From an uncultured bacterium (GTDB lineage Bacteria > Patescibacteriota > Minisyncoccia > UBA6257 > 2-01-FULL-56-20), in contig CAWJQC010000006.1 of the NCBI GenBank assembly GCA_963844965.1, forward strand, positions 58,014 to 122,013: DNA of 64,000 nt, read 5' to 3'. Positions 406-62,001 of this stretch are shown one piece after another. Positions within the stretch are counted from its first letter, which is position 1. Every line of letters starts with the position of its first letter. Under the pieces are notes generated by a model, which had not been told where the DNA came from, did not search any database, and was given only the letters and a program-made list of their open reading frames with translations. A program made the translations under genes and the position numbers.

Positions 406-671
406 TTATTTTTTTAAGTCTAATTTTTTAATAAGCTTTTCGTATTCCTTGGGTTGTTTCTTCTTGAGATACGCCAAAAGCCGGCGCCTGTGACTCACCA
501 TCTTTAGAAGCCCGCGCCTTGAGTGGTGGTCCTTCGGATTTTTCTTCAGATGTTTCGCGAGTTCGTCAATCTGGCGGGAGATTACCGCGATCTGCACCTG
601 TGCGGAGCCGTGTCTTTTTCGTGCGCCCGATGTTCGCTGATTATTTTGGATTTAACACGCTTGGTAAGCAT
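406..671 (-). CDS. rpsO: 30S ribosomal protein S15, apparent 1-nt frameshift near 612-616
   Basis: The C-terminal 63 aa ([46 protein letters not shown]...) matches the conserved S15 core. The N-terminal [21 protein letters not shown] reads from ATG at 671 in another frame. The junction gacacggctccgca would need one extra G to restore DTGSAQVQ. Confidence 0.75.
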
Positions 672-1038
672 TCGGGTATTGCAACTTCAATCTGTATGTA
701 AATATTATAACCAATTCGTTAAAAATAAACAAAGAAAGTATCGCGCTTATAAAAATAGGGAGGGCTCGCGGGCGCTTTAGTGAATTTGCCATTGCGCGGC
801 GAGCCCTTCGTACATCGATACACACATAAGGGCTGGGGGGGCGGTTCGAATACTAGCCGCCGCCCTGCCCAATCTGCGCGCCTGCTAACTCCGCCGAGGC
901 CGCAGATCTACGCGGGGGCTCGGGCCGAGACCGCACCATTATCGGCCATTCTTACGATAATCCCTGGCCGAAAAACAGTCGGCTGCCGCTGCCCGCCGCA
1001 ACTTGGATCCGAATCCAAAGAGCAACTACTTTACCTGC

Positions 1039-1622: not shown

Positions 1623-1668
1623 CCAAAAGCCCCCTCCGGCGCAAGGCCGAAGGGGGCTTTTTTCTTTT
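1623..1668. terminator. Bidirectional rho-independent terminator
   Basis: aaaaaccaaaaGCCCCCTCCGGCgcaaGGCCGAAGGGGGCtttttt: a GC-rich hairpin flanked by an A-run and a T-run, sitting between convergent units. Confidence 0.5.
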
Positions 1669-1693: not shown

Positions 1694-2027
1694 TTAGCAG
1701 CCGGTGAACGAAGCGCCGAGGAAGCTGCCGATGATCAGAGGAACGCCCTTCGCGAGAACGGCGATGACCACGGCGACTACGGCGTAGATAAGCGTGCTCG
1801 AAGCGCCCTTAACCTTCTCCGGATCGCCAGAGGCAGTCAAATACTTGTAGGCGGCGACGAGTATGAAAACAATCGCCAAAACGACGAGAAGCGTGAAAAG
1901 CCAGTTGACGGCGGTGCAGATAAGCGCGATAAATCCGGTTAAGCTCGTAACGGTCGTCGGCGCTGTCTGTTGGGTCCCGCCACAAAAGGCAGGGTCAACC
2001 CCAAAACCAGCGATTTTATTGACTTCA
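1694..2027 (-). CDS. T4SS pilin-like (TrbC/VirB2-family) protein, signal peptide and pilin body in different frames
   Basis: The body ...LVVLAIVFILVAAYKYLTASGDPEKVKGASSTLIYAVVAVVIAVLAKGVPLII carries the motif shared with downstream paralogs. The signal peptide MKSIKSLVLGLTLPFVAG starts at ATG 2027 in another frame. An apparent -1 shift lies near 1975-1985; the tracked ORF is 1694..1879. Confidence 0.5.
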
Positions 2028-2118
2028 TGTTAAGAATTCGGTATTGACCGGAATAATGTTTTTTTTCGACCTTTCTCCTTATATAAAAAGCATAGCACAA
2101 ACCATGCAACACTACAAC

Positions 2119-2505
2119 CTAAGGACATAACGCTACCGCTGCCGAGTTCGCACCAAAGATATTAAGAACAATCAGCGGTACGGATTTCGCAAGCAATGCC
2201 ACCACCAAGCCAACCACGGCGTAGGTAAGCATCTTCGTGGCTTCGCTTACTTTGGTCGGGTCGCCGGAAGAGGTCATATACTTATACGCCGCGACAAGCA
2301 CCAAAAGTATGACCAATGCCATGAGAATGTACCACATCCAGAAAGCAACCTCGCAAATCACATTGTCAATAAGCTGATCTGGAGTGCTATATGTCGGTAC
2401 GGGAATTACCGATTGTGCGAAAACCTTATTCGCAGAAAGGAGCAGCAACTGGGATAGAAGCAGAACACCATACCGATATTTCACGGCTGAAAATAAATTT
2501 TTCAT
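2119..2505 (-). CDS. T4SS pilin-like protein (signal peptide plus 2-TM pilin domain)
   Basis: MKNLFSAVKYRYGVLLLSQLLLLSANKVFA signal peptide followed by ...VLVAAYKYMTSSGDPTKVSEATKMLTYAVVGLVVALLAKSVPLIV. Confidence 0.6.
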   Translation of the reverse strand: MKNLFSAVKYRYGVLLLSQLLLLSANKVFAQSVIPVPTYSTPDQLIDNVICEVAFWMWYILMALVILLVLVAAYKYMTSSGDPTKVSEATKMLTYAVVGLVVALLAKSVPLIVLNIFGANSAAVALCP

Positions 2506-2631
2506 ACAATATTTTTTAACTTTATAACCGGCTGAAACGCTTATTTTCGGCCTTTTACGTTGTCTTTATCATACCACAAACTCCGAGAATTGCACTGGGG
2601 ATAAAGGTGCTGCTTAACCTACCGCACCACC

Positions 2632-2979
2632 TCAACAGCCTCCACTGACGCTACTGGCACCGACTATACTGGCGACTATTGACGGGACGGACTTCGCGAG
2701 AATTGCCACAATGATGCCTGCAGCGGCATAAGCAAGCGTCTTATGCGCCGAACTCACTCTTTCTGCGTTATCGCCGCCGGTAACATAGAGAAACCCGGCG
2801 TAAATTATCATAATCACGGAAAGCGCCATCAGAATGTAAAACATGGCAACGGCGATCGGGCAGAGAATTTTACTGGTAATATCCGAAACGCCGCCGCTGA
2901 AAGTTATGCCGGAAACGTCGGCATAAGCGCCGCTTACGCCAAAAAGTTTCAGGAAACCGAGAATCAAAACCGGCGACAT
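2632..2979 (-). CDS. T4SS pilin-like protein paralog
   Basis: ...MFYILMALSVIMIIYAGFLYVTGGDNAERVSSAHKTLAYAAAGIIVAILAKSVPSIV, the same domain architecture as the neighbouring paralogs. Confidence 0.55.
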   Translation of the reverse strand: MSPVLILGFLKLFGVSGAYADVSGITFSGGVSDITSKILCPIAVAMFYILMALSVIMIIYAGFLYVTGGDNAERVSSAHKTLAYAAAGIIVAILAKSVPSIVASIVGASSVSGGC

Positions 2980-3079
2980 TATGGTCCTCGTTTTCGGCGA
3001 GTTTCACAATGTAATTAACTATTTTCATAGTCCTTTCCTGCCTATTAATTTTAACACACCGGGCAAGTTATAAAACTAT

Positions 3080-3646
3080 TCACCCCCCGACCCCGAAAAT
3101 CGCCTGGATAAGGCTGACCACGCCTTTCGCCGCGAGAACCGCCACAAAACCGATGGCCGCGTAAAGAATCGTGTTCCTGCCGTTCTTGAACTTTTCCGGA
3201 TTGCCGCCGGCGGTTATTATCTGGAATCCGCCGTAAAGAACCATAATGGCGACTATGGGAACGGCTATCGTGATCAAAAGGTCAATGATCTTATTGGCAC
3301 AATCCGTGATGGTTGAGCACGCGCCCTGGAGAGGATTGGTAAGCGAGCCGCTGAGAGTCACGTTGCTGCCGGGTGATTGACCACTTGGCGACTGACCGCT
3401 GGGTGATTGACCGCTTGGCGACTGACCGCTGGGTGATTGACCGCCAGGCGTGCTCGCAGTCCATTGGCAAGCACCATTACCACCGAAAGCGCCAACACAC
3501 GCACTCTGGGTCGTATAAAGCGTGCAGTTGGCGGACTGACAGTTCGCGCCAGTAGTATCTTGGGTACAAGTACCTCCGCTACACGCAGCAGTGCATGAAG
3601 CGACAGTATAAGAACAGCCACCAGTGCTGCAGTAATATGGCGTCAC
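3080..3646 (-). CDS. Cys-rich protein with (SPSGQ)n repeats and C-terminal pilin-like domain, probably the C-terminal part of one gene with 3643..4806
   Basis: The C-terminus VPIVAIMVLYGGFQIITAGGNPEKFKNGRNTILYAAIGFVAVLAAKGV is a pilin domain. The reading frame stays open upstream of the GTG start (..NTGECVTTSPAGTSGGTCSAV..), continuing the repeat motif of the upstream ORF. Confidence 0.5.
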   Translation of the reverse strand: MTPYYCSTGGCSYTVASCTAACSGGTCTQDTTGANCQSANCTLYTTQSACVGAFGGNGACQWTASTPGGQSPSGQSPSGQSPSGQSPSGQSPGSNVTLSGSLTNPLQGACSTITDCANKIIDLLITIAVPIVAIMVLYGGFQIITAGGNPEKFKNGRNTILYAAIGFVAVLAAKGVVSLIQAIFGVGG

Positions 3647-4806
3647 GGCGCTACACGTGCCGCCGCTGGTGCCAGCAGGCGATGTTGTAACACATTCACC
3701 GGTAGTAGTATTGCAGTAGGGGGCGTTACTGTATGCAGCGGCGCACTGACTGTTGCTGCTACACCCAACGCATGCATTATTAACGCAGATGGGCTGGGTC
3801 TCGACCGTGCATTTGGTGCTATCAGTGCCACAGCCGCTCGGCGCGGTCGTAACACATTCACCGGTAGTAGTATCGCAGTAGGGAGCATTACTATATGCAG
3901 CGGCGCACTGACTATTACTGCTACATGCAGAGCATATATTATTGACGCAGATAGGTGCCGTCTCGCTCGTACAAATACACTACTATCACCACTGCAACTG
4001 GTCGGCGAGGTTGTGACACATTCACCGGTATTAGTATTGCAGTAAGGAGCATTACTATATGCAGCGGCGCACTGACTATTACTGCTACACCCAACGCACG
4101 TGCCACTAGAGCCACAGATGGGCTGGGTCTCGCTCGTGCATTGACTGCTATCGGTGCAGCTACCGCCGCCGCTGCATTGATTGGTGCTCGGCAAGCCGGG
4201 CGCCAGACAGCCCGAAGAACCATACCAGCCGCATCCCGCACTACAGCAGGTAGGTTGATCAATGCAATTACTGCAACTGGATAAGTTACACGAACTGCCG
4301 CCGGTGCTCGCATTGCATACTTGCCCGCCGGCGCAACCACTATCGGAGCTGCAGGAGTTGCCAACGCCGCTACTATTGGCGTTATTTGACAGACAACTGC
4401 CAATCTGGGGGGATGCCACCGCGCAAGTGCAACCGACCCCAGTATAACAATTTCCCGCCGGCGAAGCGGAAGCGCAACTGCAAGTAACCCCATCAGAATT
4501 AGTATTGCATACCTGGCCACCAGCGCAGCCGGAGTCGGTCGTGCAGTTTCCGCCGCCGTTGGATGGGTTGCAAGACACGGAACAATTACTATCGGAGTAA
4601 GCGTTGGTTCCACAGCCTGCTGGATCTAAACAATTACCGGCCAGACAGTCATCGTTCGTCATGCAACTCGAACCGCAGGCTTCATAGAACGTACTGGGAC
4701 AGGCCTGCGCGTGACTTACAGATGGTCGGCCAAAACCGAAAATAAAAGCGGCGATGACCACAAAAGCGAAAATCAGAAGCCGCTTCTTCATAATTTTATT
4801 ATACAT
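3643..4806 (-). CDS. Secreted Cys-rich repeat protein (N-terminal part of the Cys-rich/pilin fusion; frame lost near 3960)
   Basis: Signal peptide MKKRLLIFAFVVIAAFIFGFG, then about 60 Cys in repeated CxxC/GxC motifs. Three DNA tandem repeats of about 160 bp lie at 3691, 3853 and 4017. After about 3960 the translation degenerates (SVFVRARRHLSAS...), as expected for a frameshift inside the third repeat. Confidence 0.5.
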   Translation of the reverse strand: MYNKIMKKRLLIFAFVVIAAFIFGFGRPSVSHAQACPSTFYEACGSSCMTNDDCLAGNCLDPAGCGTNAYSDSNCSVSCNPSNGGGNCTTDSGCAGGQVCNTNSDGVTCSCASASPAGNCYTGVGCTCAVASPQIGSCLSNNANSSGVGNSCSSDSGCAGGQVCNASTGGSSCNLSSCSNCIDQPTCCSAGCGWYGSSGCLAPGLPSTNQCSGGGSCTDSSQCTSETQPICGSSGTCVGCSSNSQCAAAYSNAPYCNTNTGECVTTSPTSCSGDSSVFVRARRHLSASIIYALHVAVIVSAPLHIVMLPTAILLPVNVLRPRRAAVALIAPNARSRPSPSALIMHALGVAATVSAPLHTVTPPTAILLPVNVLQHRLLAPAAARVAP

Positions 4807-4815
4807 TATTTGGCG

Positions 4816-5334
4816 CTATTCGGGCAGAAACTTAGACCATAGTCCTTGCCAGACAGAGCTTTCGTTAACGAAAGCTGGCACCGTCAGGGCGACTTTCAAT
4901 AGGCAGGCCTGCGGCTGCGTAATACCCAGGGCGCTGAGAAAATCAGATTCCGCCCGACTGCGCACTTCGTTGAAAGGATTGTTAAGTATAGTGATGAGGA
5001 AGCTGCTGTCAGCAGGAAAGTAAAGAATGTGGTAATCTCCGGTGCTTCTGAACAAAACATAATCACCCGCTTCTACTCTCACGGCATTTTTATAGGGATT
5101 TTTTACTTCCACGCTGCCGTTGGGCGTACCGATGGTAATCGTATCTCCCTCGGGGACGGGGATTGGCGGCGGAGGAGGCGTTGGTGACGTGGGCGGGGAA
5201 ATCGGCGGCAAGCCGCCGGGACCGGTACTTCCGGCAGGAGAGGTCTTGTTCCTGACAACCAAAACGACAACTACTCCGACGACTAGCACAAGAAAAATTA
5301 CCGCTATAATAATTATTCTTCTCGTTTTTAACAT
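4816..5334 (-). CDS. Hypothetical membrane-anchored Pro-rich protein
   Basis: N-terminal TM helix, a PPISPPTSPTPPPPPIPVP linker, then a beta-rich domain. It sits inside the pilin cluster. Confidence 0.4.
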   Translation of the reverse strand: MLKTRRIIIIAVIFLVLVVGVVVVLVVRNKTSPAGSTGPGGLPPISPPTSPTPPPPPIPVPEGDTITIGTPNGSVEVKNPYKNAVRVEAGDYVLFRSTGDYHILYFPADSSFLITILNNPFNEVRSRAESDFLSALGITQPQACLLKVALTVPAFVNESSVWQGLWSKFLPE

Positions 5335-6353
5335 GATAACTTATGAGGACTTGGCGGGGTGAAATTGCATGTGCAGTTCACACTCCAGTTATCCCATGCC
5401 CGGGAATTGGCGGCAAGGGGACAAGCAGCGTTAATATTCGGGCTCGATTTTGTGGCGTCGGTGACACACTTTTTATACAGTGATGTATTTACAACCTGAC
5501 AATGGTAAACATGGTTTGTGCTGTCCCACTGAGCTGCGTGGTTAAAGGCGCTGGGACAGCCATCGCCGTTCACGTCATTTACGGTCAGGTTGATTTGGAA
5601 CAGTCCCCACGAGAAAACACTGTTATCTTCCGCGCACTTATCCGACGTGCTCGGCGCCGTAGGATCGCCGCCACTTTCCTTGCTGGCAATGGAGGAAGCG
5701 TCATACGGACCATTACCGATACCGCCGAAACACGAACTGTTGAGGTTGTCTTGTGAAGCATCGCCGCTTGTAAGTGGCGCGCAATTTCCACTTGAATTGT
5801 TGCACGGACTGCCCGGATCGCAACTGCCCGGATAGCAATTTGAGGTTCCTCCGGCATTACTTTGACAATCTGCCTGGCTTGAGTAATTAGCTACACACAT
5901 ATTTCCGGCGGCTGATACCTGACACAGTTGGTAAGATGTAGAGCCTCCGCTCGCCGTCGGCGCCGCCACCTGTACCGAAACACCAGGGAGCAGTAAATTC
6001 CAATTTGTCAGATTAGGATTGATGATGTTTAAAATCGTATAAGCTCCGACAAGGAGCAGGAGTCCGACTAATGCACCTTTCACCCACTCTTTTCCTTCTG
6101 TTTGGCCAGTGGGGTTTCCGGCTGCCAGCGTGTATTTTATCCCGCCATAGACGATAGCTCCGAACGCCAGAATGCCGGCAAGCATCATGGCAAATCTATA
6201 AAGATAGTCAACGAAGTTCCCCAGGCCGGAGCTGCCAGAAGGTTGACCGGGCAGATTTGTGTAGATAGTGACCTGCGCCCGCGCCACCGCGGCGTAAAAT
6301 AAACAGAAGGAAGCAAAGACCAGTGGACGTAATTTTTTAAACAAGGTTTTCAT
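5328..6353 (-). CDS. Pilin-like N-terminal domain fused to a Cys-rich lysozyme/lytic-transglycosylase-like C-terminal domain
   Basis: Signal peptide, then ...FAMMLAGILAFGAIVYGGIKYTLAAGNPTGQTEGKEWVKGALVGLLLLVGAY (pilin motif). The C-terminus holds ..AEDNSVFSWGLFQINLT.., reminiscent of the GH23/SLT catalytic segment (E-S...GLMQI). This would be a VirB1-like function fused to a pilin. Confidence 0.5.
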   Translation of the reverse strand: MKTLFKKLRPLVFASFCLFYAAVARAQVTIYTNLPGQPSGSSGLGNFVDYLYRFAMMLAGILAFGAIVYGGIKYTLAAGNPTGQTEGKEWVKGALVGLLLLVGAYTILNIINPNLTNWNLLLPGVSVQVAAPTASGGSTSYQLCQVSAAGNMCVANYSSQADCQSNAGGTSNCYPGSCDPGSPCNNSSGNCAPLTSGDASQDNLNSSCFGGIGNGPYDASSIASKESGGDPTAPSTSDKCAEDNSVFSWGLFQINLTVNDVNGDGCPSAFNHAAQWDSTNHVYHCQVVNTSLYKKCVTDATKSSPNINAACPLAANSRAWDNWSVNCTCNFTPPSPHKLSC

Positions 6354-6829
6354 TATCCCGAAACAGTGCAGTTAAACGGACCGCCGAACCCCTGGATGAA
6401 ACTTGAAAGGCTGAAAAAGTCCACGAACAATTTCACGATGACAAAGGCGAATATGACTATAAGCAAGCCGATTAAAGCGCCGGTCAGAATTTTTTTCGCG
6501 TTCTCGCGTCGAGCCGGACTGCCGCCGGAGGTAAGATACGTGATGCCGCCCCAAGCAAAGAGAATCGGCGTGAAAACGAAAAGTACGAGCGTTATGCCGA
6601 AATAAATTATGTTCACCATGGTCTGGATAATGTCGCAGACGCTCGTGCAGTATTTTTTCGCGGCTGCCTGTCCGCTGTAAATGCCCGTGCAGGACACAAG
6701 CCCGCCGGTGCCCCAATAACCACCGGGAAATATAGATGGCGTCTGAAGCACGTCGGCGGAAGCCACCAGCGGCGCGGCGAGAACGATGACAAAAAACGAA
6801 ACACAAGAGATTAGTAATAGTCTGCGCAT
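6353..6829 (-). CDS. T4SS pilin-like protein paralog
   Basis: Signal peptide MRRLLLISCVSFFVIVLAAPLVASA, then ...IIYFGITLVLFVFTPILFAWGGITYLTSGGSPARRENAKKILTGALIGLLIVIFAFVIV. The stop overlaps the start of 5328..6353 (translational coupling). Confidence 0.55.
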   Translation of the reverse strand: MRRLLLISCVSFFVIVLAAPLVASADVLQTPSIFPGGYWGTGGLVSCTGIYSGQAAAKKYCTSVCDIIQTMVNIIYFGITLVLFVFTPILFAWGGITYLTSGGSPARRENAKKILTGALIGLLIVIFAFVIVKLFVDFFSLSSFIQGFGGPFNCTVSG

Positions 6830-20457: not shown

Positions 20458-20771
20458 GGGGATGATCGGCTTCGATAAGGATAAGTCCTGAACTGGCAAG
20501 CCAAGAGCTAACTTGTAAATCTGGCAAAAAATCAATAACTGCCAACTCAAAAGTTGCAGCTCCAGCATTCGCTTACGCGTAACGTTGGACATCGGCTGAT
20601 CCGGGCTTCTTGGGTTAATACCGGTGTTATATAAGGAAGCTCGTTCCGAGTTGACGATTCTACGCTCGGCACTAAACACAGAATCATTTCTGTCTAGTTT
20701 AACTGGACTACGCTTGTAGAAGGTTTAAGCGATTTTATCCTTACACGGCGGTTCAATTCCGCCCATCTCCA
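20458..20771 (+). ncRNA. ssrA: tmRNA (SsrA); predicted tag ANSKVAAPAFAYA
   Basis: 5' GGGGATGATCGGCTTCGATAAGG resembles the tmRNA 5' consensus. An internal tag ORF ..GCC AAC TCA AAA GTT GCA GCT CCA GCA TTC GCT TAC GCG TAA is present. The 3' T-arm GGCGG-TTCAATT-CCGCC plus acceptor CATCTCC-A pairs with the 5' GGGGATG. Confidence 0.8.
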
Positions 20772-20948
20772 CTAAAACAAAAATACTCGCTCCTTGTGAG
20801 CGGGTGTTTTTGTTTCTTGTAAAATGGTCTGGCGGAATTGAACGAGGGGTGGGCCGGAGGGGAAACTCGGTGTCCCCTCCGTGTAGGAAATTACTCAAAA
20901 CCGAGGGTTGTGAGAGAGCGAGTTGCTGTATAGCGACTCGCGACGTGA

Positions 20949-20966
20949 AATTCCGCCCATCTCCAC
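20949..20966 (+). repeat. 18-bp direct repeat of the tmRNA 3' end (AATTCCGCCCATCTCCAC), att-like scar
   Basis: Identical to 20755..20772. A partial inverted copy (ggcggaattgaacg) lies at 20826..20840. Confidence 0.55.
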
Positions 20967-21173
20967 ATAACCAGAATTGAACTTTAGAAAACCCTCCAGA
21001 AGGGTTGAAAAATCTAGCCCGACCCTGATTTTTTCTTGGTTTTCCATTTTGCGTTTTTGAAACAGTATCACGCGAGGGAGTGAATATAAAAAAAACCGAC
21101 ACCTATTAGTGCCGGTTGTAAAGGATAGGTTTCTTTAGACAGTGATTCGACGGCTTTTTGCCGTTTTTTTTCG

Positions 21174-21956
21174 TTAAGCCGCAATCTTCTCGGCAAACAC
21201 GGACGGCGGCATCTTGAGGGCGGAGTGGATCCGCGTGTGGTTGTACTGCCACAAGGTGCTGTAGATCTCCGCCACGAGCTCGCCGAAGGTCCCGAACCGG
21301 TTGGGATCACCGAGGTCAATCTTGAACTTGTCATAGAACGATTCCTGGTAGCCGTTTTCCCATGGGGCACCGGGCCGCGACCGCGAGATCGTGATGCCAC
21401 AGTCCCCCAGTGTATCGGTGAACGCTCGTGCCTTGTACTCGCTGCCGTTGTCCGAATGGAAGATGACCGGATGCGGATGGTGGAAAAGCGCGTTGGCCAG
21501 GGTCTGTATCGTGAGGGGCGATCCTTTCCGCAACGCCACATGGACGCCCATCAATCGTCTCGTGAAAAGATCGAGTATCGTGGACACGTACACTTTCTTG
21601 CCGCGATACAGGAACTCCGTGAAATCGGTTGCCCAGACGTGGTTCGCGTACGAGGGCATGATGGCAAGTAAGAGGTTCGGAAAGGCCCGCGATGCCTTTG
21701 ATTTCCGGTATTTCCTGCCTCGCCTCCGGTACGGCCTTATGCCGAAGATTCGCATGACGCGCTGCGCTCGCGGACGGCTCACGCCCAGAGCTTGTCCCAA
21801 GCGCCGGGAACCGTATGCCGGATGGCGCTGCAATTCTTCTTCCATGCGGATCTTGAGCGCCCAATCTTTCTTGTCCTGCCGTGATACGTAGTAGAGCGAT
21901 GCCCGCGAGACGCCCATGGCCCGCGCCATGGCGGACTTGTTCCGCTTTTCCGTCAA
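21174..21956 (-). CDS. IS3-family transposase OrfB (DDE integrase core)
   Basis: ...YVSTILDLFTRRLMGVHVALRKGSPL...FHSDNGSEYKARAFTDTL...ISRSRPGAPWENGYQESFYDKFK. Confidence 0.8.
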   Translation of the reverse strand: MTEKRNKSAMARAMGVSRASLYYVSRQDKKDWALKIRMEEELQRHPAYGSRRLGQALGVSRPRAQRVMRIFGIRPYRRRGRKYRKSKASRAFPNLLLAIMPSYANHVWATDFTEFLYRGKKVYVSTILDLFTRRLMGVHVALRKGSPLTIQTLANALFHHPHPVIFHSDNGSEYKARAFTDTLGDCGITISRSRPGAPWENGYQESFYDKFKIDLGDPNRFGTFGELVAEIYSTLWQYNHTRIHSALKMPPSVFAEKIAA

Positions 21957-22216
21957 TTCTTTTTTTGGGCCTGGGAGAGCTTCACGGTGAGCTCGCCCAC
22001 CACTTCAAACAGCTCCCTGTTCTGCTTCTGGAGACGGCTGAACTCGCCCCAGGAAGGGACGCCCGATGCTCCTGCGCCTAGCCAATTGTAGATGGTGGAC
22101 TCGTGCAAACCGTGGTCCTTCGCAGCCTGCGCTACGGGGACTCCTTCTTCCTTCACCCGGCGGAGGATGTCCGCCTTCACTTCCTTCGCAATCCGATGCC
22201 CTTTTTTGTTGCTCAT
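21953..22216 (-). CDS. IS3-family transposase OrfA (HTH)
   Basis: MSNKKGHRIAKEVKADILRRVKEEGVPVAQAAKDHGLHESTIYNWL... Confidence 0.75.
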   Translation of the reverse strand: MSNKKGHRIAKEVKADILRRVKEEGVPVAQAAKDHGLHESTIYNWLGAGASGVPSWGEFSRLQKQNRELFEVVGELTVKLSQAQKKN

Positions 22217-22516
22217 GACACAATGGTAGTTTGTTTCGACCTTTGTGTCTAAATTATCCTATCCGGGTCAAAGCTTCAAGATTCGCCCACCGGTCTTTAT
22301 ACCAATTTATAATAACAGCAATAAATTACACAAACAGTTATCAGAACTCTCCAAGGAGGCTCATAAAAACTATTCCAATGAAAAAGTTATTGCCGAAATC
22401 GACCAAGAGATAAACGAAGTTTACTTGAAAGTTTGCCAGCAAGAAAATAAATAGCAATGAAAATACTCTTATAACTCTTCGAAGAAATGATGGGGATACT
22501 TAATTTAAACTAAGCC

Positions 22517-24028
22517 ATGAAAGCAATAATCTTATCTCGCGTATCAACGAAAGAGCAGGCCGATGAGGGGCAATCCATACCAGCGCAAACGGGACGGCTC
22601 ACTGAATACGTTAATAAAAAACAACTTGATCATTGGAAGGTTTTTGAGATCGCCGAAAGTTCTACGCACGATACAAGGAAAAAGTTTGATAAGGTTTTGG
22701 AGCTTATTAAGAAATCGCACGAGCCGCTTGCGCTTGTGGTTGAAACCGTTGACCGGCTGCAGCGGAGCTTTAAGGAAAGCGTTATTTTGGACGATCTGCG
22801 CAAAGAAGGCAAAGTTGAAATCCACTTTGTCCGCGAGGGCTTGATATTAACGAAGGATTCGAACAGCGCCCAGCTTTTACAATGGGATATGGGCGTGATG
22901 TTTGCCCGCAGCTACGTTTTGCAATTAAGCGATAACGTGAAGCGCAGCAATGAGCAGAAACTGAAGAACGGCGAATGGATAAGCAAAGCGCCGATAGGTT
23001 ATCGAAATATCAGGGATGAAAACGACAAGCCGGATATAGAAGTTGACCCCGAAGCATCGCCTTTTATCGTCAAGGTTTTCGAGCGCTACGCCACTGGCAA
23101 TTACTCGATGATTACGTTGGCCAAACAGATGCGCGAAGAAGGTTTTACCGGAAAACAACACGGCAATCCGATCACCGTTAGCCAGATAGAGCGCATACTT
23201 AAAAATTCTTTTTACTACGGCGTTATGGAGGTTCACGGCAAACAATATCAGCACCGCTACCCACCGCTTATCTCAATGCACCTGTTTTTGAAATGCCGCA
23301 AGGTTATAGAAAGTTGGAATAAAAAACCGTTTCAACACGCCGCGAGGCCATTTATCTTTCGAGGTATCCTATCGTGTGCAACCTGCGGTTGCGCCATTAC
23401 CGCAGAAATGGCAAAGGGCAAGTATATTTATTATCATTGCACGAATTTCAGGGGTATATGCGAGAAGGTATACGTGCCCGAAAAAGACCTTTTAAAGCCC
23501 ATAAAACGCTATCTGCGCAAGTTTGTGCTGCCGCAGGAAGGAATTGACTACGTTGTCGGTAAACTACGCACAACGACAGAAATCGAGCAGGAATACCACA
23601 ATCAGGCGATGGCTACCCTAAAAGCCGAATATGACCGCTACGAGGCCAGAATCAGCAAAATGACCGATGACAAATACGACGGCAGTATTACGCCCGAAAT
23701 CTACGACAAAAAATTGAAAGAGTATAAGGCAAAGCAGGCCGACTTATTGAATCAGATGCAGGATCACAGCAAAGCCGACGAGCAGCATCACCTTACGGCT
23801 ACGAAATTACTTGATGTTTGCAAACGCGCCGATTCAATCTTCGAAAGTTCTGAACCGGCTGAAAAACGGCAATTTTTGAATTTCGTATTTCAGAACTCGA
23901 CGCTAAACCGAAATAAGCCAATGTTTATGCTGAAACCCGTGTTTGCGGGCATAGTAAAAGCGCACGAAACTCATAAATGGGGTGCCTATCGGGATTCGAA
24001 CCCGAGCCGAGAGTGCCACAGACTCTAG
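22517..24028 (+). CDS. Large serine recombinase (resolvase N-terminus, recombinase domain and zinc ribbon)
   Basis: MKAIILSRVSTKEQADEGQSIPAQ (catalytic Ser region) ... CATCGCAI...YYHC zinc ribbon. The last ~17 codons overlap the tRNA-His gene on the opposite strand. Confidence 0.85.
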   Translation: MKAIILSRVSTKEQADEGQSIPAQTGRLTEYVNKKQLDHWKVFEIAESSTHDTRKKFDKVLELIKKSHEPLALVVETVDRLQRSFKESVILDDLRKEGKVEIHFVREGLILTKDSNSAQLLQWDMGVMFARSYVLQLSDNVKRSNEQKLKNGEWISKAPIGYRNIRDENDKPDIEVDPEASPFIVKVFERYATGNYSMITLAKQMREEGFTGKQHGNPITVSQIERILKNSFYYGVMEVHGKQYQHRYPPLISMHLFLKCRKVIESWNKKPFQHAARPFIFRGILSCATCGCAITAEMAKGKYIYYHCTNFRGICEKVYVPEKDLLKPIKRYLRKFVLPQEGIDYVVGKLRTTTEIEQEYHNQAMATLKAEYDRYEARISKMTDDKYDGSITPEIYDKKLKEYKAKQADLLNQMQDHSKADEQHHLTATKLLDVCKRADSIFESSEPAEKRQFLNFVFQNSTLNRNKPMFMLKPVFAGIVKAHETHKWGAYRDSNPSRECHRL

Positions 24029-24052
24029 TGCTGCCGTTACACCATAGGCACC
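23978..24052 (-). tRNA. tRNA-His (anticodon GUG) with G-1, C73 and encoded CCA
   Basis: Reverse complement: G(-1)-GTGCCTA-TG-GTGT-AACGGCA-GCAC-T-AGAGT-CTGTGGC-ACTCT-CGGC-TCGGG-TTCGAAT-CCCGA-TAGGCAC-C-CCA. Confidence 0.8.
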
Positions 24053-24065
24053 ATTATTCCTACAC

Positions 24066-24845
24066 TTGAAAATTTACCCGAATTCCGCATATTTTTCAAG
24101 TAAGCTGGGAAAGTTTCTGGGGCTTTGCTATAATGAATTCCAACTGAATATGTCCGTCATTTTGACGAACCTTGGGCTTCTGGCGAGCCAAAACATGTTT
24201 TTGGCTTATTTCATTATATATATCGCCACGATTTTTTTGGGTAACATTTCCGCCTTTGCCGCGTTCTGGGTAGTGTTCCACGGAGTTCTGGGATTCTGGG
24301 GCGTCCCGCTTCTTATACTCACGATTTTCGCGGCCGATATTAGCGGCGATCTCCTGTGGTATTCATTGGGTCGCGCACTTCGCGACACACGCTTCGGCAA
24401 CTTCGTAAAAAATCATCTGCGGCACCACGAAAAAATAGAACGCTCCGTGCAAAAGAACGGCGCGGGCTGGATAATCATGGCGAAGTTTCTATACGCTTCC
24501 GCCTTCCCTGTGATATTTCTAATCGGCTGGACGAGAATAAAATTCAAAAAGTTTTTCAAGACATCGCTTTTGTCGGTCGCGATTTGGCTGCCGATCCTCG
24601 CCGGCCTCGCCTACGGACTATTCTCCGGCCTCTCGCCCCTTGGCGCCGTAAGCATTTTCAAACACTTTGAACTCATCCTCTTAATCGGCTTGGTGATTTT
24701 CTTCGTGGCCGATTACTTCATTGCCAAACTCGCCAGAAAAATTCTCGGCAGGAAGCTGGGCATTCTGAATGGCAATGGCAACGGTAATAATCAATGTCCT
24801 GAAGCAAAATCAGGCGTAAATCCTAGGAGCGCCGATTGCACTTGA
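24066..24845 (+). CDS. DedA/SNARE-associated (VTT domain) family membrane protein
   Basis: 259 aa polytopic; ...FAADISGDLLWYSLGRALRDTRFGNF...IIMAKFLYASAFPVIFLIGWTRIKF. The C-terminal tail is NGNGNGNNQCPEAKSG. Confidence 0.55.
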   Translation: MKIYPNSAYFSSKLGKFLGLCYNEFQLNMSVILTNLGLLASQNMFLAYFIIYIATIFLGNISAFAAFWVVFHGVLGFWGVPLLILTIFAADISGDLLWYSLGRALRDTRFGNFVKNHLRHHEKIERSVQKNGAGWIIMAKFLYASAFPVIFLIGWTRIKFKKFFKTSLLSVAIWLPILAGLAYGLFSGLSPLGAVSIFKHFELILLIGLVIFFVADYFIAKLARKILGRKLGILNGNGNGNNQCPEAKSGVNPRSADCT

Positions 24846-24972
24846 CTTTTATTAAAATGTAGTCTATCATATGGACAGCCTGGGCCAACGGTCAATCTCA
24901 ATTAATCAACAGAAAAACCGAACCTGAGGCGTAACTTTGATAATGTAACAACGCAGAGGAGAGAGGTATGAG

Positions 24973-25635
24973 ATGAGATTCAAACTATCTTCGGTTGGCG
25001 GCGAGTATGCCAGCGTCTTTGAATTGACACACGGCGATCGGCAAATGTTGATTCTTAATCTGCGGACATTTCATAAACTTCCTGAAAATATTCCGGTTGG
25101 TGCTTCAACCGTAGTAGCCGGCATCGCGATCCCCCATTTCGGGAAAGTGGTGAAGACTGGGAGGAAACCAATCGTTTCTCATGGTGAGCGGATGCTCCCG
25201 GTCGGCAGTGAATGTTATGTTTTTTCTCCTGCCTCGTCGGGCTTTCTGACCGCGATGTTGGCCGCTGCGGCCGCCTCCGAATCGCCAGATTCATCGTTCA
25301 CTGTCCATCCGGTGATGATGCGGCAAGTTCCAAATGGAAACGGGAACGGCAATCATAAAGCCATTAAGCACGCCCTGACGGAAGCATTCGGAACTTGTTC
25401 CGAAGGATGGGGCGGCAACTTCCATATTTTCATCTGGGGAAAGATTGACGAGCCCGTCGCGCTACTTGTCCTTTGTAAGGAAGAATTTGAAGAGGAAGCG
25501 GCGCTACTGGTAGCTACTAAGGCCGCCGCGGGCGCGCTAACCCCCCTCATTGAGTCCTCCGAGTTTGAAGACTTGAAGGAAAAACGGGGATTAACGGCGT
25601 ACAACCGTGGTCCCCTCTGCCTTCTGGGGGACTAA
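24973..25635 (+). CDS. Hypothetical protein
   Basis: 220 aa, visibly GC-rich, contains an NGNGNGNH motif. No recognisable domain. Confidence 0.4.
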   Translation: MRFKLSSVGGEYASVFELTHGDRQMLILNLRTFHKLPENIPVGASTVVAGIAIPHFGKVVKTGRKPIVSHGERMLPVGSECYVFSPASSGFLTAMLAAAAASESPDSSFTVHPVMMRQVPNGNGNGNHKAIKHALTEAFGTCSEGWGGNFHIFIWGKIDEPVALLVLCKEEFEEEAALLVATKAAAGALTPLIESSEFEDLKEKRGLTAYNRGPLCLLGD

Positions 25636-25677
25636 AATCAGAGGTTAAAGTTTAAACGTACCGAGGCCTGTCCGCAC

Positions 25678-25706
25678 TTGACAGGCCTTTTTGTTTGCTG
25701 TATAAT
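25678..25706 (+). promoter_or_regulatory. Textbook sigma70 promoter (TTGACA-N17-TATAAT)
   Basis: cTTGACAggcctttttgtttgctgTATAATg; the -35 box is embedded in the hairpin ggcctgtccgcacttgacaggcc. Confidence 0.5.
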
Positions 25707-25786
25707 GTACACAGATTTAGTTAGACGTGGAATCCCAGCAACGGGATCACCACAAATTTGATAGCCAATACAAGGAGGGCCTAACC

Positions 25787-27001
25787 ATGGCCAGTAATGT
25801 AAAGAAAGCATTTGAGGAAGCTGGAATTGATGTTCCCGAAGTTCCCACCTCCGGCATCGCCGGAACGGAAACGACGGTACCACCTTCTGCTCCGGCGGAC
25901 GCAACTGCAACCGCTACAACACCGGCACCTTCCGTACCAGCAGCTACCGACACCACACCAACTGCCGACAAACAACCAGTTGTTCTTTCTTTCGGCAGAG
26001 TTGACCGGGAAGCCGCTGCCAAACTCCGCGAGCAGAAGAAGACGGAATTGGAAGCAATCCCGTCCTTCGTCGCGGAACTCGTTGTCTTGCTCAAGAACCC
26101 CCGCGAAGAGACCATACTGTCTATGACCGACGGCACCGAGCGTTCGCTCACCCTCGAAGAATTCGAGGCATACATCGCCACCGTCGTAAACGGGACCCAG
26201 CATCGCGGCGTCCGCCAATCGTTTACAACTGCCGTCGTGGAACAGATGTTGGGGCAATTTCCACCGTCTGATCATCTGTTCGGCGTCGCGTTCACGAGGG
26301 TTTCAACAGCGCTAACAGATACCGACGGAAGGGGCTTTTTCTTCGAAGTAGAGAAGGATTGGGCCCTGAAGAACCCCGGCAACGTAATCTGGATGTACAG
26401 GAGCGACGGGAGCGGCAAGGCGCCGTTCGCCTCGGTCGCACCGGACTCCACTCGTCTCATGATTGCCACCAAAAAGTGGCTGGACGAGATTGAGCGGGCG
26501 GAGAAATCCCGCATCAAAACCGGGACCAAGCCGTTCCTAGAAGCGTTTTACCAGGGCGGGGAAACCGCTTTCTTCCTCAAGAAGAAGGAGATTCCCCGCA
26601 GGGACGGCGGCACTATAATCCGAAAGGCCGGTCACTTCCGCATTCACATCGAAGACGGCAAAAACGGGAGAATCCGCCCAGTGGAGGCACTGGAATCGCC
26701 TCACCACGACCTGTTTGAGGAAATGACCTCTCGCAGGGAGTGGGTATCAATCGGCGTCCTAGCGCCGGAAATCGTCGGCGCCGACCCGGAAAATAGGCAG
26801 AAAATGATCGCCGCCTATTTCCGGGACGTGGAGAACTATGAGCAGCGCAAGCGGTTCATCCGTTTCGCGCACATCATAATCGATGGCTACATCGACGCCC
26901 TGGCATCCGAGAAGAAGGCGGCCGAGGCGCACGAAGGTGGCCGAGAAGCCGGTACCTGCGGCCAAAACTGCCGAAACCAAACCCACCGGAGAGCACCGTG
27001 A
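25787..27001 (+). CDS. Hypothetical large protein, part 1 (probably continues into 26883..27788 through a frameshift)
   Basis: The start was chosen at MASNVKK after the RBS aaggaggg. The ORF overlaps the next ORF by 119 nt in another frame. The second frame (KVAEKPVPAAKTAETKP...) looks more protein-like across the overlap. Confidence 0.45.
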   Translation: MASNVKKAFEEAGIDVPEVPTSGIAGTETTVPPSAPADATATATTPAPSVPAATDTTPTADKQPVVLSFGRVDREAAAKLREQKKTELEAIPSFVAELVVLLKNPREETILSMTDGTERSLTLEEFEAYIATVVNGTQHRGVRQSFTTAVVEQMLGQFPPSDHLFGVAFTRVSTALTDTDGRGFFFEVEKDWALKNPGNVIWMYRSDGSGKAPFASVAPDSTRLMIATKKWLDEIERAEKSRIKTGTKPFLEAFYQGGETAFFLKKKEIPRRDGGTIIRKAGHFRIHIEDGKNGRIRPVEALESPHHDLFEEMTSRREWVSIGVLAPEIVGADPENRQKMIAAYFRDVENYEQRKRFIRFAHIIIDGYIDALASEKKAAEAHEGGREAGTCGQNCRNQTHRRAP

Positions 27002-27788
27002 TTCGGCAAAAGCCGATTACATGAAGCTCGAGGAGCTGAAGCGGAGGGGGGGATACATTTCCTCGCGAAGCTTCATGCTCGACCGCAAGCCGGGCGTGGC
27101 TCTCTTCTCCGCGAAAACGGAGGAGAAGCCATCTCGCCACAAGAACAATCGTGGCGAGATGGTTGTTATCCCTGCGCTCATGGTGCGGGACAGCAGCGGC
27201 AAGAAAGTCGCCGTCTACCACAGGCTCGGTGCCGCGCTGGAACAGAACGAGAAAGGGGAGATTCGCATGATTGATTGCATCCCCTCTAACGCAAAACTTT
27301 TCGCTCCGCTCAAGGAATTTATCACCCCGGGCGAGAAGTTTGCGAATATTCCGGAGCCAGCCGCTGCCGCTCTGCGGAAGTTCTACGGCCACGAAGCTGG
27401 AGACAAGTGGAAGGACAGCTTGCGGGAAAAGCGGGCGGCACAAGCGGCACAAAATGCCGCTGGCCAGCCAGCAACTACCCCCACCCCTCCACCCGAAGCC
27501 GCGCCATCACCTGCCGCCGACAATACAATCAACACGACTGCGGCGGACGAAACAGCGGCGACGGAAGCCAATACCGCTACGGGGGAGGCTAGCCCGACCA
27601 TGGAGGAGGCCCGGGAGCCACAACCGGAAGTGGGATCTGCCGAAGTTGCTCTGACACCGCCGGTGGAAGCCACCGAGGTGATGTCGGGCAACGACACGTT
27701 GTCTGCGGCGCCGATAAAACTCGACGAAGGACGAAGGCGCCGTCGGGACAATAACCGCCGGCACCAGCAGCGCGGTCTGGCGGCGTAA
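26883..27788 (+). CDS. Hypothetical protein, part 2 (Ala/Pro/Thr/Glu-rich C-terminus)
   Basis: ...YMKLEELKRRGGYISSRSFMLDRKPGVALF...; the tail is low-complexity. Confidence 0.4.
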   Translation: MATSTPWHPRRRRPRRTKVAEKPVPAAKTAETKPTGEHRDSAKADYMKLEELKRRGGYISSRSFMLDRKPGVALFSAKTEEKPSRHKNNRGEMVVIPALMVRDSSGKKVAVYHRLGAALEQNEKGEIRMIDCIPSNAKLFAPLKEFITPGEKFANIPEPAAAALRKFYGHEAGDKWKDSLREKRAAQAAQNAAGQPATTPTPPPEAAPSPAADNTINTTAADETAATEANTATGEASPTMEEAREPQPEVGSAEVALTPPVEATEVMSGNDTLSAAPIKLDEGRRRRRDNNRRHQQRGLAA

Positions 27789-27820
27789 GTAGCTTTTTCC
27801 GCTAGAGCTCCTATGGAGTT

Positions 27821-27876
27821 TTAGCACAACCCGTGTGGTTTTCCGAGTGCAAACTCGGAAAACCCACGGGTCTTTT
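27821..27876 (+). terminator. Strong rho-independent terminator
   Basis: CCCGTGTGGTTTTCCGAGtgcaaaCTCGGAAAACCCACGGGtcttttatttg. Confidence 0.55.
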
Positions 27877-27925
27877 ATTTGTCCAAGTGAAGAAAAAGAC
27901 GGGGAATGGTTGGGGTAGCTTTGAC

Positions 27926-27955
27926 TTGACAGGTTGGAAATAAGTATGCTATAAT
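27926..27955 (+). promoter_or_regulatory. Textbook sigma70 promoter (TTGACA-N18-TATAAT)
   Basis: cTTGACAggttggaaataagtatgcTATAATacc. It shares the cTTGACAgg start with the 25678 promoter. Confidence 0.5.
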
Positions 27956-28027
27956 ACCAAGCAGTGGGTAGCTGACGGAATTGCTTCCGCTGGCGGCCGA
28001 CAAATTCATCAGCAAAGGAGGTGGCCC

Positions 28028-41613: not shown

Positions 41614-42018
41614 CTAGATATTTTCGTAATATCTAATTTCTTTGTCCATCGTAATGGGATTTTTAAGAGTTATTGCCAAGAGATCAATGCGCCAGCCTTT
41701 GCGGTCCTCTATCAAATCCACGTGTTTGCCGGCAAATGCTTCGCAGGCCCGCCGCAGTTTCTTGAGCTTTGCCGCGGTCATATTGTCCTCGGGCGCCAAT
41801 CTGTCCCCCGGGCCGCCGGGATCGCCAAACGTCTTCACTTCAACAAAAACAAGTGTCCTGTCCTTCGCGCGGCAGATAATATCTATCTCATCCCATTTTT
41901 CCTTGTAGTTGCGCTTCAAAATCTTATATCCCTTGTCAACAAGATATTCACAGGCCAAATCTTCGCCGATTTTGCCGATGGTTAAATTTTTTGGCTTAGA
42001 TGTTCCACCGCTAAACAT
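41614..42018 (-). CDS. yraN: YraN-family (UPF0102) endonuclease-like protein
   Basis: LTIGKIGEDLACEYLVDKGYKILKRNY...IDIICRAKDRTLVFVEVKTF. The start is set at the second Met (MFSGG..). Confidence 0.65.
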   Translation of the reverse strand: MFSGGTSKPKNLTIGKIGEDLACEYLVDKGYKILKRNYKEKWDEIDIICRAKDRTLVFVEVKTFGDPGGPGDRLAPEDNMTAAKLKKLRRACEAFAGKHVDLIEDRKGWRIDLLAITLKNPITMDKEIRYYENI

Positions 42019-42065
42019 TTTTGTTATAATATTAGTGTAAATCAGCAAACATCGCAATCCGCCAA

Positions 42066-42512
42066 ATGATAAGCCAACGGGGGACAAAAACAAAACTGTC
42101 GTATGAGTATATAAGGGGCCTAACCGAAGGAGAGGGAACTTTTACTTTTTGCAATTCTGGCCACAGAAAGATACCGGCTTTTACTATCAAAATGCATGTT
42201 AGAGACAAAAAATTGTTGGAAGCCGTCAGGGATGTTCTTGGCTTGAAAAATAAGGTATACCAATATCATTATCCAGGAAATGATGGTTCGGCGAGGGGTC
42301 CGCAAGCGATGCTTATTGTCCGCGAAATAGGGAATCTTAAGGATGTAATAATACCCCTGTTTGCCAAAAAACTTGCCGGCAACAAGGGTAAACAATTTGA
42401 CGCTTGGATTGAAAAGATATGGGAAGACCCGGACGTGCCACGGGCTTATAAGCTAATCTATAAAATCTATAAATCCGGGTTTTATGATAGAAATCCGAAA
42501 TTTATTTCTTAG
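42066..42512 (+). CDS. Free-standing LAGLIDADG-family homing endonuclease
   Basis: LSYEYIRGLTEGEGTFTF (single LAGLIDADG-type motif), KLLEAVRDVLGLKNKVYQY, AMLIVREIGNLKDVIIPLF. Confidence 0.65.
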   Translation: MISQRGTKTKLSYEYIRGLTEGEGTFTFCNSGHRKIPAFTIKMHVRDKKLLEAVRDVLGLKNKVYQYHYPGNDGSARGPQAMLIVREIGNLKDVIIPLFAKKLAGNKGKQFDAWIEKIWEDPDVPRAYKLIYKIYKSGFYDRNPKFIS

Positions 42513-42778
42513 GAGAGGAGAATGGATGTTTGCTGAATTACAATTGTTTCGCGATTTACAAAATTTTTATAGGAATCTATATTTTTCAACGTTTCCAGGT
42601 AAGCTTGAAAAATAAGCATTGGGCGATAAACAAACAAAAATGTTTGTCAAAAATCGTGGCGAGGCTTATTTTATGGGCTTTATCGGTTTTGCCGCATTAC
42701 TTTGCCGTATTTTTGCCGTAATTTATTGCCGATGTGCCTCGCTTGACTTCTTATGCCAGCTAATTATCCTTTAAAAAC

Positions 42779-43114
42779 ATGGACCAGCAAAAACTCAACG
42801 AATATAAAAAAGAGTTGGAAGCGACGCGCGCCGAACTGCTTGCGGAGCTAAAAAAGGATGAGAAGCCGGAGGATTTTGGCGGTGACGTTGACCATGGCGA
42901 AGAGGAAGAAAACGAGACAGAAAGCTTCAGCGAGCAAGTAGCGCTCGGACAATCACACAAAGAACAAATCAACGATATTGATATTGCTCTGAGCAAAATT
43001 GAGACCGGCAAATTCGGGATTTGCGAAAAATGTGGCCGTGAAATAGAAGAAAGAGTATTGCGCATCACGCCAGAATCGCGGCTCTGTAGGGCTTGCAAGA
43101 CAAACAAGAAGTAG
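42779..43114 (+). CDS. DksA/TraR-family C4 zinc-finger protein
   Basis: C-terminal CEKCGREIEERVLRITPESRLCRAC. Confidence 0.65.
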   Translation: MDQQKLNEYKKELEATRAELLAELKKDEKPEDFGGDVDHGEEEENETESFSEQVALGQSHKEQINDIDIALSKIETGKFGICEKCGREIEERVLRITPESRLCRACKTNKK

Positions 43115-44655: not shown

Positions 44656-44755
44656 CTAAACCAACGCGGTTGGCGGCACACTTCCTGGTTTAACCTTGTT
44701 TTATTTGATTTTTTCGCCTTTCTATAGTTATAAACAGTTAATCCACAACAAGGGC

Positions 44756-44783
44756 TTGACACCTGTCGTGCATATGCTAGAAT
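44756..44783 (+). promoter_or_regulatory. Strong sigma70-like promoter (TTGACA-N16-TAGAAT) at the head of the AT-rich island
   Basis: gggcTTGACAcctgtcgtgcatatgcTAGAATc. Confidence 0.45.
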
Positions 44784-44828
44784 CTAAGCAAATAGTCGAA
44801 ATGGGTGTAATAGCAAAATACTAATCAA

Positions 44829-45068: not shown

Positions 45069-45070
45069 AA

Positions 45071-47728: not shown

Positions 47729-47737
47729 GCCCGCGTA

Positions 47738-61996: not shown

Positions 61997-62001
61997 ATCA
62001 A

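Follow-up and report, generated by a model that had tools for sequence, protein, structure and literature searches.

Which system is encoded by a tandem array of small, secreted membrane proteins in an uncultured Patescibacterium, and why do two of these proteins carry large additional extracellular domains? We addressed this question for a 64 000 nt stretch of contig CAWJQC010000006.1 (assembly GCA_963844965.1), referred to below as the window, in which seven co-directional genes run on the minus strand from position 6829 to 1694 and either overlap or are separated by spacers of at most 126 nt. An earlier note had described the locus as a tandem array of six TrbC/VirB2-like pilin genes. We find six pilins as well, and in addition a non-pilin gene inside the array that had gone unmentioned; two of the six pilins (1 and 4) are moreover frameshifted in the assembly. 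Read in the direction of the genes, the array consists of pilin 6 (6353-6829, 158 aa), the pilin-lysozyme fusion pilin 5 (5328-6353, 341 aa), the non-pilin partner gene np172 (4806-5334 when corrected, 4816-5334 as the assembled open reading frame (ORF)), the ‘giant’ pilin 4 (3080-4806, frameshifted), pilin 3 (2632-2979, 115 aa), pilin 2 (2119-2505, 128 aa) and pilin 1 (1694-2028, frameshifted, 111 aa when corrected). On balance we consider it probable that this locus is the pilin operon of a chromosomal, conjugation-derived type IV secretion system (T4SS) of Patescibacteria, of the Paceibacteria/Minisyncoccia type.

The family assignment was examined with profile searches. All six array pilins match the T4SS_pilin family (PF18895) with 33.2-46.5 bits (E 4e-12 to 5.5e-8) and thus exceed the gathering threshold of 26.6 bits; the E-values are 5.5e-8 for pilin 6, 4e-12 for the C-terminal part of pilin 4, 1.5e-8 for pilin 3, 9.6e-11 for pilin 2 and 3.9e-8 for the 61-aa ORF of pilin 1. 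The TrbC/VirB2 profile (PF04956) matched four of the six only below its gathering threshold of 27.9 bits (E 3e-4 to 4e-3), some of these matches being near full length, with a best score of 21.3 bits (E 3.2e-4) for pilin 2. The family claimed for the shared C-terminal domain is therefore borne out through PF18895, with TrbC remaining sub-threshold, and the profiles place the domain among T4SS pilins and not in an unrelated membrane-protein family. As had been predicted, two hydrophobic helices flanking a short polar loop are seen in the hydropathy profile of every pilin, each of which also starts with a signal peptide of the signal peptidase I type with a small-x-small/AxA-type cleavage motif in its sequence. 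The sequence motif that had been proposed as common to all six (AAYKYLTASGDP...) fits pilins 1 and 2 well and pilins 3 and 4 loosely, and pilins 5 and 6 share only the family-level hairpin pattern. The pilin domains are divergent, with pairwise identities of 17-45% (mean 27%), and a hidden Markov model (HMM) built from the six found no further copy in the window. In pilin 6 the signal peptide (…ASA|D) is followed by three Cys before the first transmembrane (TM) helix, a VirB2-like helical hairpin and a C-terminal tail with one Cys, as judged from hydropathy and Cys positions. We also observed that pilins 2-6 match the NCBIfam model NF045849 (‘Mbov_0395 family pilin-like conjugal transfer protein’, from integrative conjugative elements of Mycoplasma) below its cut-off of 40 bits (18-29 bits, E 6e-7 to 2e-3), which hints that PF18895 pilins may be related to proteins inside the MPF-FATA (mating-pair formation) class of conjugation systems. 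This class is said to have no VirB2 homologues.

Pilin 5 begins with the pilin hairpin (aa 44-111, nt 6021-6224), which is followed by a Cys-rich linker (aa 125-187) and a lysozyme-like domain (aa 190-330, nt 5364-5786); Pfam, the alignment and the structural model all agree with this order, which had been read from the sequence before. In the AlphaFold2 (AF2) model, which was built on an alignment of 40 sequences, the two helices 44-76 and 81-111 reach a predicted local distance difference test (pLDDT) value of ~90 and the C-terminal domain ~95, and the linker is disordered with low confidence. By fold comparison of the model, the C-terminal domain adopts a lysozyme fold, with a C-type lysozyme as the best structural match. 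Residue E226 closes helix 215-227, and both E226-S227 and G250-LFQIN255, together with several Cys, are invariant across the 40 aligned sequences, so that conserved catalytic motifs and fold jointly uphold the lysozyme call. The corresponding Pfam family SLT_3 (PF18896, ‘lysozyme like domain’) scores 16.1 bits (E 0.016) on pilin 5 itself, below its gathering threshold of 27 bits. In a large protein collection we found 198 homologues of pilin 5, from sources including Minisyncoccia, Paceibacterota, Parcubacteria and Kuenenbacteria, many of which show ~35% identity across >90% of the length and carry both PF18895 and PF18896. A profile of the fusion family returned only spurious matches to the HtrII hairpin when compared with PDB sequences.

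Next, we investigated how far this arrangement is conserved by scanning GTDB species representatives, which yielded at least 80 loci. Nearly all of them are labelled as Patescibacteria-type metagenome-assembled genomes, and a handful bear the labels Bdellovibrionales, Gammaproteobacteria or archaeon, which we took as given. At least 10 loci contain the full cassette in the order of the window, i.e. a pilin of ~165-250 aa, the pilin-lysozyme fusion, np172 and three or four short pilins (this order is present in L002, L003, L004, L006, L013, L015, L016, L063, L064 and L068). The array of the window is flanked by gyrA and a solute-binding protein gene on one side and by rpsO, the gene for S15, on the other, and it ends at a strong terminator-like hairpin (1625-1661, minus strand; 16 pairs followed by a T-run). 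The pair of gyrA and solute-binding protein gene lies immediately upstream in twelve loci, and gene order and this neighbourhood were found again in at least 12 genomes. The closest relative, L001 (GCA_040960625.1; gyrA 91.5% identical), shares the whole gyrA-to-rpsO arrangement and has seven pilins, and the conserved order holds even across genomes with only ~71% gyrA identity.

The connection to a secretion machine comes from other lineages. In seven loci (L009, L058 and five more) a VirB6-like gene is located a few kb upstream of the fusion and in the same direction. The operon of L009 and L058 comprises a homologue of a 626-aa protein of the window, the VirB6-like gene, an unknown gene, PrgI (PF12666), VirB4, one or two unknown genes, the pilin-lysozyme fusion and an np172 homologue. 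For L009 we confirmed PrgI (PF12666) and VirB4 (P-loop_TraG, AAA_10, TraC_F_IV) between the VirB6-like gene and the fusion, and the VirB4 confirmed in L058 additionally matches CagE_TrbE_VirB. The suspected link to a T4SS is thereby strengthened, since in other Patescibacteria the pilin-lysozyme gene shares one operon with VirB6-like, PrgI/VirB3 and VirB4 genes. In the window itself, the plus-strand region 60116-64000 encodes the 626-aa secreted or membrane protein and then a VirB6/TrbL-like polytopic protein that continues past the window end. This VirB6/TrbL-like gene at 62002, which the earlier note had already recognized, contains many hydrophobic segments and matches TrbL (PF04610) weakly (20.8 bits, E 3.7e-4; gathering threshold 25.9). 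A contig scan with the VirB6-like fragment of the window found no relative. No VirB4-type ATPase occurs among the large ORFs of the 64-kb window, in line with the previous statement that none lies between the array and the VirB6-like gene. Upstream of the 626-aa/VirB6-like pair we found KsgA (59065-59868, plus strand) and a LysM + Peptidase_M23 wall hydrolase (52741-53826, minus strand), and KsgA and M23/LysM ‘VirB1-like’ proteins are frequent neighbours of T4SS or virB4 genes in Patescibacteria (PMC12102498). Because homologues of the 626-aa and VirB6-like proteins head the PrgI-VirB4 operons of L009 and L058, in the order seen at 60116-64000, and because KsgA is found just upstream, we consider it very probable that the T4SS core cluster begins at the right end of the window; its VirB4 would then be encoded past position 64000.

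VirB1 profiles mostly match nothing near virB4 in Patescibacteria, so that the VirB1 role has been left open; most pilin-bearing genomes are without a detectable VirB1, and it has been suggested that other glycosidases may take over the role (PMC12102498). Since the fusion occupies the operon position of the Gram-positive wall hydrolase, occurs once per locus and carries an invariant catalytic motif, we regard it, by comparison of sequences and gene order, as a strong candidate for the VirB1 equivalent. The wall-lytic domain, which had been described as cargo of the appendage, is more simply read as a VirB1-like opener of the bacterium's own wall.

The non-pilin gene np172 accompanies the fusion closely, as a homologue lies directly downstream of the fusion gene in 65 of the 80 loci. 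It encodes an N-terminal TM helix, a Pro-rich linker and an extracytoplasmic domain of ~110 aa, and both the PF18895 profile and the HMM built from the array show that it is not a pilin. The family alignment A2 (53 sequences) contains an invariant Cys and a near-invariant GLSFC. No match was found in Pfam, NCBIfam or among PDB sequences, and an AF2 model computed from 2 sequences reached a pLDDT of 49 and was not used. In L001, np172 is kept although the enzyme domain of the fusion differs, which argues against np172 being a cognate immunity protein.

By comparing pilin 5 with its orthologues we observed that the extracellular parts are much less constant than the membrane part. The L001 orthologue (L001 8419-9351, plus strand) has a hairpin that is 67% identical, and a different C-terminal Cys-rich domain replaces the lysozyme. 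The only PDB matches of this domain are Hedgehog N-domains (E ~0.09) over an H-x-x-G-x-A-x-D zinc motif, and this weak match indicates a possible LAS/DD-peptidase-like fold. In further genomes, members of the pilin 5 subfamily combine hairpins of 60-84% identity with differing C-terminal modules, among them weak VanY (P0041, P0110) and weak CHAP matches (P0113), PKD (P0054), Cys-rich repeats (P0003, P0014) and LAS/Hedgehog-DD-peptidase-like domains (P0004, P0030, P0083); the Pfam and PDB support for these alternative modules is weak (E 6e-4 to 0.1). Two other L001 orthologues differ in a similar way: that of pilin 6 has 362 aa and an extra Cys-rich C-terminal extension of ~190 aa, and that of pilin 3 has a Cys-rich C-terminal tail, both of which are absent in the window copies. 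Extracellular modules are thus swapped between close relatives on a conserved membrane hairpin. A second recurrent feature concerns the short pilins. Pilins 1-3 have exactly two Cys each, the first shortly ahead of helix 1 and the second at the C-terminus (C38 and C111 in corrected pilin 1, C51 and C127 in pilin 2, C40 and the last residue C115 in pilin 3). Among 77 short pilins from the other loci L001-L081, 42 have Cys at both positions, 31 at neither and 4 at only one (Fisher p = 6e-17). This correlation suggests a disulfide that would join the outward ends of the hairpin, a possible counterpart of the head-to-tail cyclisation of TrbC/VirB2.

The most unusual member of the array is pilin 4. 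Its region 3080-4806 has a length of 1727 nt, not divisible by 3, and is assembled as two ORFs of 387 and 188 aa; the N-terminal 275 codons lie in one frame and the remainder in the -1 frame, with the shift at the T-run 3973-3975. When one T is added, pilin 4 becomes a protein of 575 aa with 64 Cys, composed of a signal peptide, an extension of ~470 aa that holds 62 of the 64 Cys, an (SPSGQ)5 linker and the C-terminal pilin hairpin. The extension contains three 54-aa repeats (3678-4098, minus strand; 162 nt x 2.6 copies, 81% matches and score 542 in Tandem Repeats Finder (TRF)), and the linker repeat is located at 3371-3444 on the same strand (TRF period of 15 nt x 4.9 copies, and translation). 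The repeats, linker and pilin domain of the giant fusion were therefore found as previously described, but not in one ORF as assembled. The deposited record of the same sequence annotates only a truncated 382-aa ORF (P0121), and the intact L001 orthologue has 434 aa. In a word-indexed search, the giant pilin matched nothing but itself and a single orthologue, and an exhaustive HMMER search with the N-terminal 241 aa against 1.84 billion representatives gave 3 matches with E ≤ 1e-3, one being the query itself and the two others marginal (E 6e-5 and 1e-4). Judged by these searches, the extension is essentially an orphan with no assignable fold. A match to a Paramecium surface antigen (E 0.036) was rejected as compositional. 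Programmed frameshifting was also considered for pilin 4 and rejected, as there is no slippery heptamer, three stops occur just upstream in the new frame and rpsO carries the same type of lesion.

Pilin 1 changes frame at the G-run 1976-1978, between the signal peptide (ATG at 2028) and the hairpin (1694-1879); 1694-1879 alone corresponds to the C-terminal half of a pilin, and the intact L001 orthologue has 145 aa. The third shift of the array, in np172, is located at the A-run ~4860-4862 and hides the conserved C-terminus …GLSFC… in the assembled ORF. The alternative frame reads …ALSGKDYGLSFCPNSAK* and regains the near-invariant GLSFC, and the corrected gene ends in TAATG, with its stop overlapping the ATG of pilin 4. 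Outside the array, rpsO (406-672, minus strand), intact in L001, has a 1-nt shift at the G-run ~607-620 that puts its N-terminal 21 codons into another frame. All four shifts occur at homopolymers of 2-4 nt. One could therefore think of a decaying array, in which pilins 1 and 4 and np172 are real pseudogenes or are phase-variable through homopolymer slippage, the more so as three shifts fall within 3.2 kb and surface genes are generally known as classic targets of phase variation. However, tracts of 2-4 nt are too short for efficient slippage, the adjacent essential rpsO shows the same kind of lesion, the frames beyond each shift are fully open, conserved and free of secondary stops, and all L001 orthologues are intact. 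We hence consider decay or phase variation very improbable. Assembly errors explain the shifts better, because the essential rpsO is likewise split, the corrected np172 regains both GLSFC and TAATG, and the frames are open; all seven array genes are probably intact in the organism. A blind scan of the window for further split genes was too noisy to yield an error rate.

From these observations we propose, as a model that we hold to be reasonably probable, that a VirB4/VirB6 machine assembles Sec-exported hairpin pilins, that a tethered lysozyme opens the bacterium's own wall and that pilin 4 displays a variable module. Each array protein would be exported by Sec and its signal peptide cleaved, leaving a helical hairpin in the membrane with both ends outside; in the short pilins, a disulfide that links the Cys before helix 1 to the C-terminal Cys would probably close this hairpin. 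A VirB4 ATPase and a VirB6 platform, whose genes would lie outside the array in the cluster that starts at ~60 kb, would extract the pilins and polymerise them into a short pilus or an envelope-spanning conduit needed for the host-dependent lifestyle. The lysozyme of pilin 5 would act as the missing VirB1 equivalent and, on a tether of ~75 residues, cut the peptidoglycan of its own cell at the assembly site. The Cys-rich N-terminal part of pilin 4 would be a fast-evolving, disulfide-rich surface or adhesin module, exposed either by a minor or tip subunit or from the membrane itself. Several points weigh against this model. The TrbC/VirB2 profile matches below threshold only, the lysozyme domain of the window stays below the SLT_3 cut-off (16 vs 27 bits), and in a fold search the helical hairpin resembles many unrelated hairpins besides an archaeal conjugative pilin. 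VirB4 was not found within the window and the array is ~53 kb away from the VirB6-like gene; the frameshifts are probable, not proven, artefacts. So far, none of the Patescibacteria that have such a system has been observed with a pilus, so that polymerisation is deduced from family membership only, and a recent account places a Patescibacterial filament at the level of a ‘potential to elaborate conjugative pili’ (PMC12857230). In addition, our results are compatible with both a self-directed and a host-directed lysozyme.

A host-directed lysozyme would belong to a different scenario, in which the pilins, polymerised or simply lying on the surface, mainly deliver exchangeable enzymes and binding modules to the host cell: lysozyme or peptidase would breach the host wall where the cells touch, the Cys-rich module would bind the host surface and np172 would help in assembly or protection. 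According to PMC11665869, these organisms are believed to live as epibionts, and the rapid turnover of the extracellular parts fits such a role, since the same pilin subfamily bears different C-terminal modules in other genomes, L001 has its peptidase-like domain despite 91.5% gyrA identity and the pilin 4 extension has only 3 matches in 1.84 billion. Yet there is one hydrolase fusion per locus, at the operon position of Gram-positive VirB1-type hydrolases, np172 is retained despite the enzyme swap and the alternative cargo domains match Pfam and PDB weakly; this scenario is possible, if rather unlikely. A further reading, which we judge unlikely, is a modular cargo-on-pilin system, in which a conserved scaffold of two helices, stapled by a disulfide where classical T-pilins are cyclised head to tail, has been recombined with interchangeable wall hydrolases (lysozyme, LAS/VanY-type peptidase, CHAP) and hypervariable Cys-rich binding modules. 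If this were true, a T4SS filament would carry enzymes and adhesins onto the host and open the host wall, and np172 would serve specifically in assembling the subunit that bears the cargo. Alternatively, the PF18895 hairpin might not polymerise at all and only hold extracellular domains or stubs at the surface, independently of a T4SS. A VirB2-type filament would indeed have little room for domains as bulky as 470 and 230 aa on each of its subunits, a long distance separates the array from the T4SS core genes in this genome, and Gram-positive T4SSs are normally without a pilus (PMC12102498). Against a mere anchor stand the four cargo-free pilins of 111-158 aa among the six proteins, the cassettes embedded in VirB4/VirB6 operons of other lineages and the finding that both the T4SS and the bare pilins are indispensable to Southlakia epibionticum (PMC10633639), and we regard it as quite improbable.

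Some further features lie elsewhere in the window. Next to the tmRNA gene (20458-20772) come, in this order, an IS3-like transposase ORF (21177-22004, minus strand), a large serine recombinase (22517-24028) and, at 25721-27785, GC-rich (58%) orphan ORFs that may also be split by a frameshift; the stretch 20458-28000 has the appearance of a mobile element that inserted at the tmRNA gene. A low-GC island at 42000-49000 (40-46% compared to ~50% elsewhere), with a 627-aa orphan (45071-46954) and a protein with HATPase_c and DUF4325 (STAS-like) domains (47855-48928, minus strand), may be a defence or other accessory island. Finally, the match of a UbiA prenyltransferase ORF (57138-58765, minus strand) to its profile sets in at position 35, and the ORF overlaps the end of a 323-aa multi-TM ORF that lies upstream in a different frame; a further frameshift of the assembly or a membrane-protein fusion may be the reason.

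VirB2-like pilin arrays of Patescibacteria have already been published (Wang 2023; Quiñonero-Coronel 2025, PMC12102498), and the array described here is an example of this published kind, not a new system. In the latter study, 3,035 genomes were searched with PF18895 and PF04956, which gave 441 arrays of 2-11 pilin genes with a mean identity of 25%, some of them interrupted by a non-pilin gene. Epibiotic growth of S. epibionticum depends on the array and the T4SS, and a lysozyme homologue encoded downstream of virB4 is essential as well (PMC10633639, PMC12102498, PMC12857230). The suggestion of the earlier note that diversified pilins serve host or cell contact agrees with what has been proposed for Patescibacteria in these papers; elsewhere, the function of the T4SS/pilin-array system is described as completely unknown (PMC11665869). 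In our literature search we found no paper that mentions PF18896 or pilin fusions, the term ‘fusion’ in PMC12102498 referring only to VirB3-VirB4. What seems new are the fusion as a probable VirB1 equivalent, np172, the swapping of modules and the correlated Cys pair. A large part of bacterial diversity belongs to the Patescibacteria, and T4SS and pilin array are among the few systems shown to be essential for host-dependent growth. The locus offers a candidate for the ‘missing’ VirB1 wall opener, conserved in at least 80 species, and its details provide well-defined targets for genetics, the tools for which now exist in Saccharibacteria.

The closest known counterparts are the arrays of Patescibacteria themselves (that of S. 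epibionticum ML1 and the 441 surveyed). With these the locus shares the phylum, PF18895, tandem divergent paralogues (here six, 27%), an occasional interruption by a non-pilin gene, a chromosomal position close to genes for replication and the ribosome, and a neighbourhood that contains neither a relaxase nor a coupling protein. It differs in the hydrolase and large Cys-rich fusions, in np172 and in the gyrA/solute-binding-protein synteny, none of which appears in the published descriptions. Furthermore, the surveyed arrays are most abundant in Microgenomatia and Saccharimonadia whereas the window array is Paceibacteria/Parcubacteria-like, and it lies ~53 kb from the VirB6-like gene instead of inside a T4SS cluster. 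Classical TrbC/VirB2 pilins (RP4 TrbC, Agrobacterium VirB2, F TraA) resemble the array proteins in the long signal peptide, the small size (in four of six) and the two hydrophobic helices with a short polar or charged loop and both termini outside. In contrast to them, the array pilins match PF04956 only below threshold, belong to a monoderm envelope with no outer-membrane core complex and have no evident cyclisation machinery, although the correlated Cys pair could close the hairpin.

VirB1-type hydrolases (VirB1, TraG of pIP501, PrgK of pCF10) are likewise membrane-held, have a lysozyme- or lytic-transglycosylase-like domain with a catalytic Glu and are encoded in or beside the T4SS operon, and in L009 and L058 the fusion comes after VirB4. 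Relatives of the fusion swap in peptidase-type hydrolases, and the Gram-positive analogues combine SLT with CHAP or M23 (background on these families; PMC12102498). Here, however, the anchor is a complete VirB2-like pilin hairpin and not a single TM helix, the domain is of the SLT_3 type (PF18896), which is unmatched by the VirB1, TrsG and CD419 profiles according to PMC12102498, and the best structural match is a C-type lysozyme. The VirB2 arrays of Bartonella and Anaplasma also arose by tandem amplification and diversification of T4SS pilin genes in host-dependent bacteria. Their copies are near-identical or moderately diverged, belong to Gram-negative animal pathogens and are thought to serve antigenic variation, whereas the paralogues of the window are ancient and keep their order at ~71% gyrA identity, which points to distinct structural roles rather than interchangeable variants. 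In the type IV pili of Gram-positive bacteria, modular pilins such as PilB and PilC of Streptococcus sanguinis carry a functional globular domain on the pilin and form minor subunits that add adhesive or enzymatic functions to the filament. Their pilin fold and assembly machine, those of a type IV pilus, are unrelated to the proteins described here, so that these modular pilins provide an analogy only.

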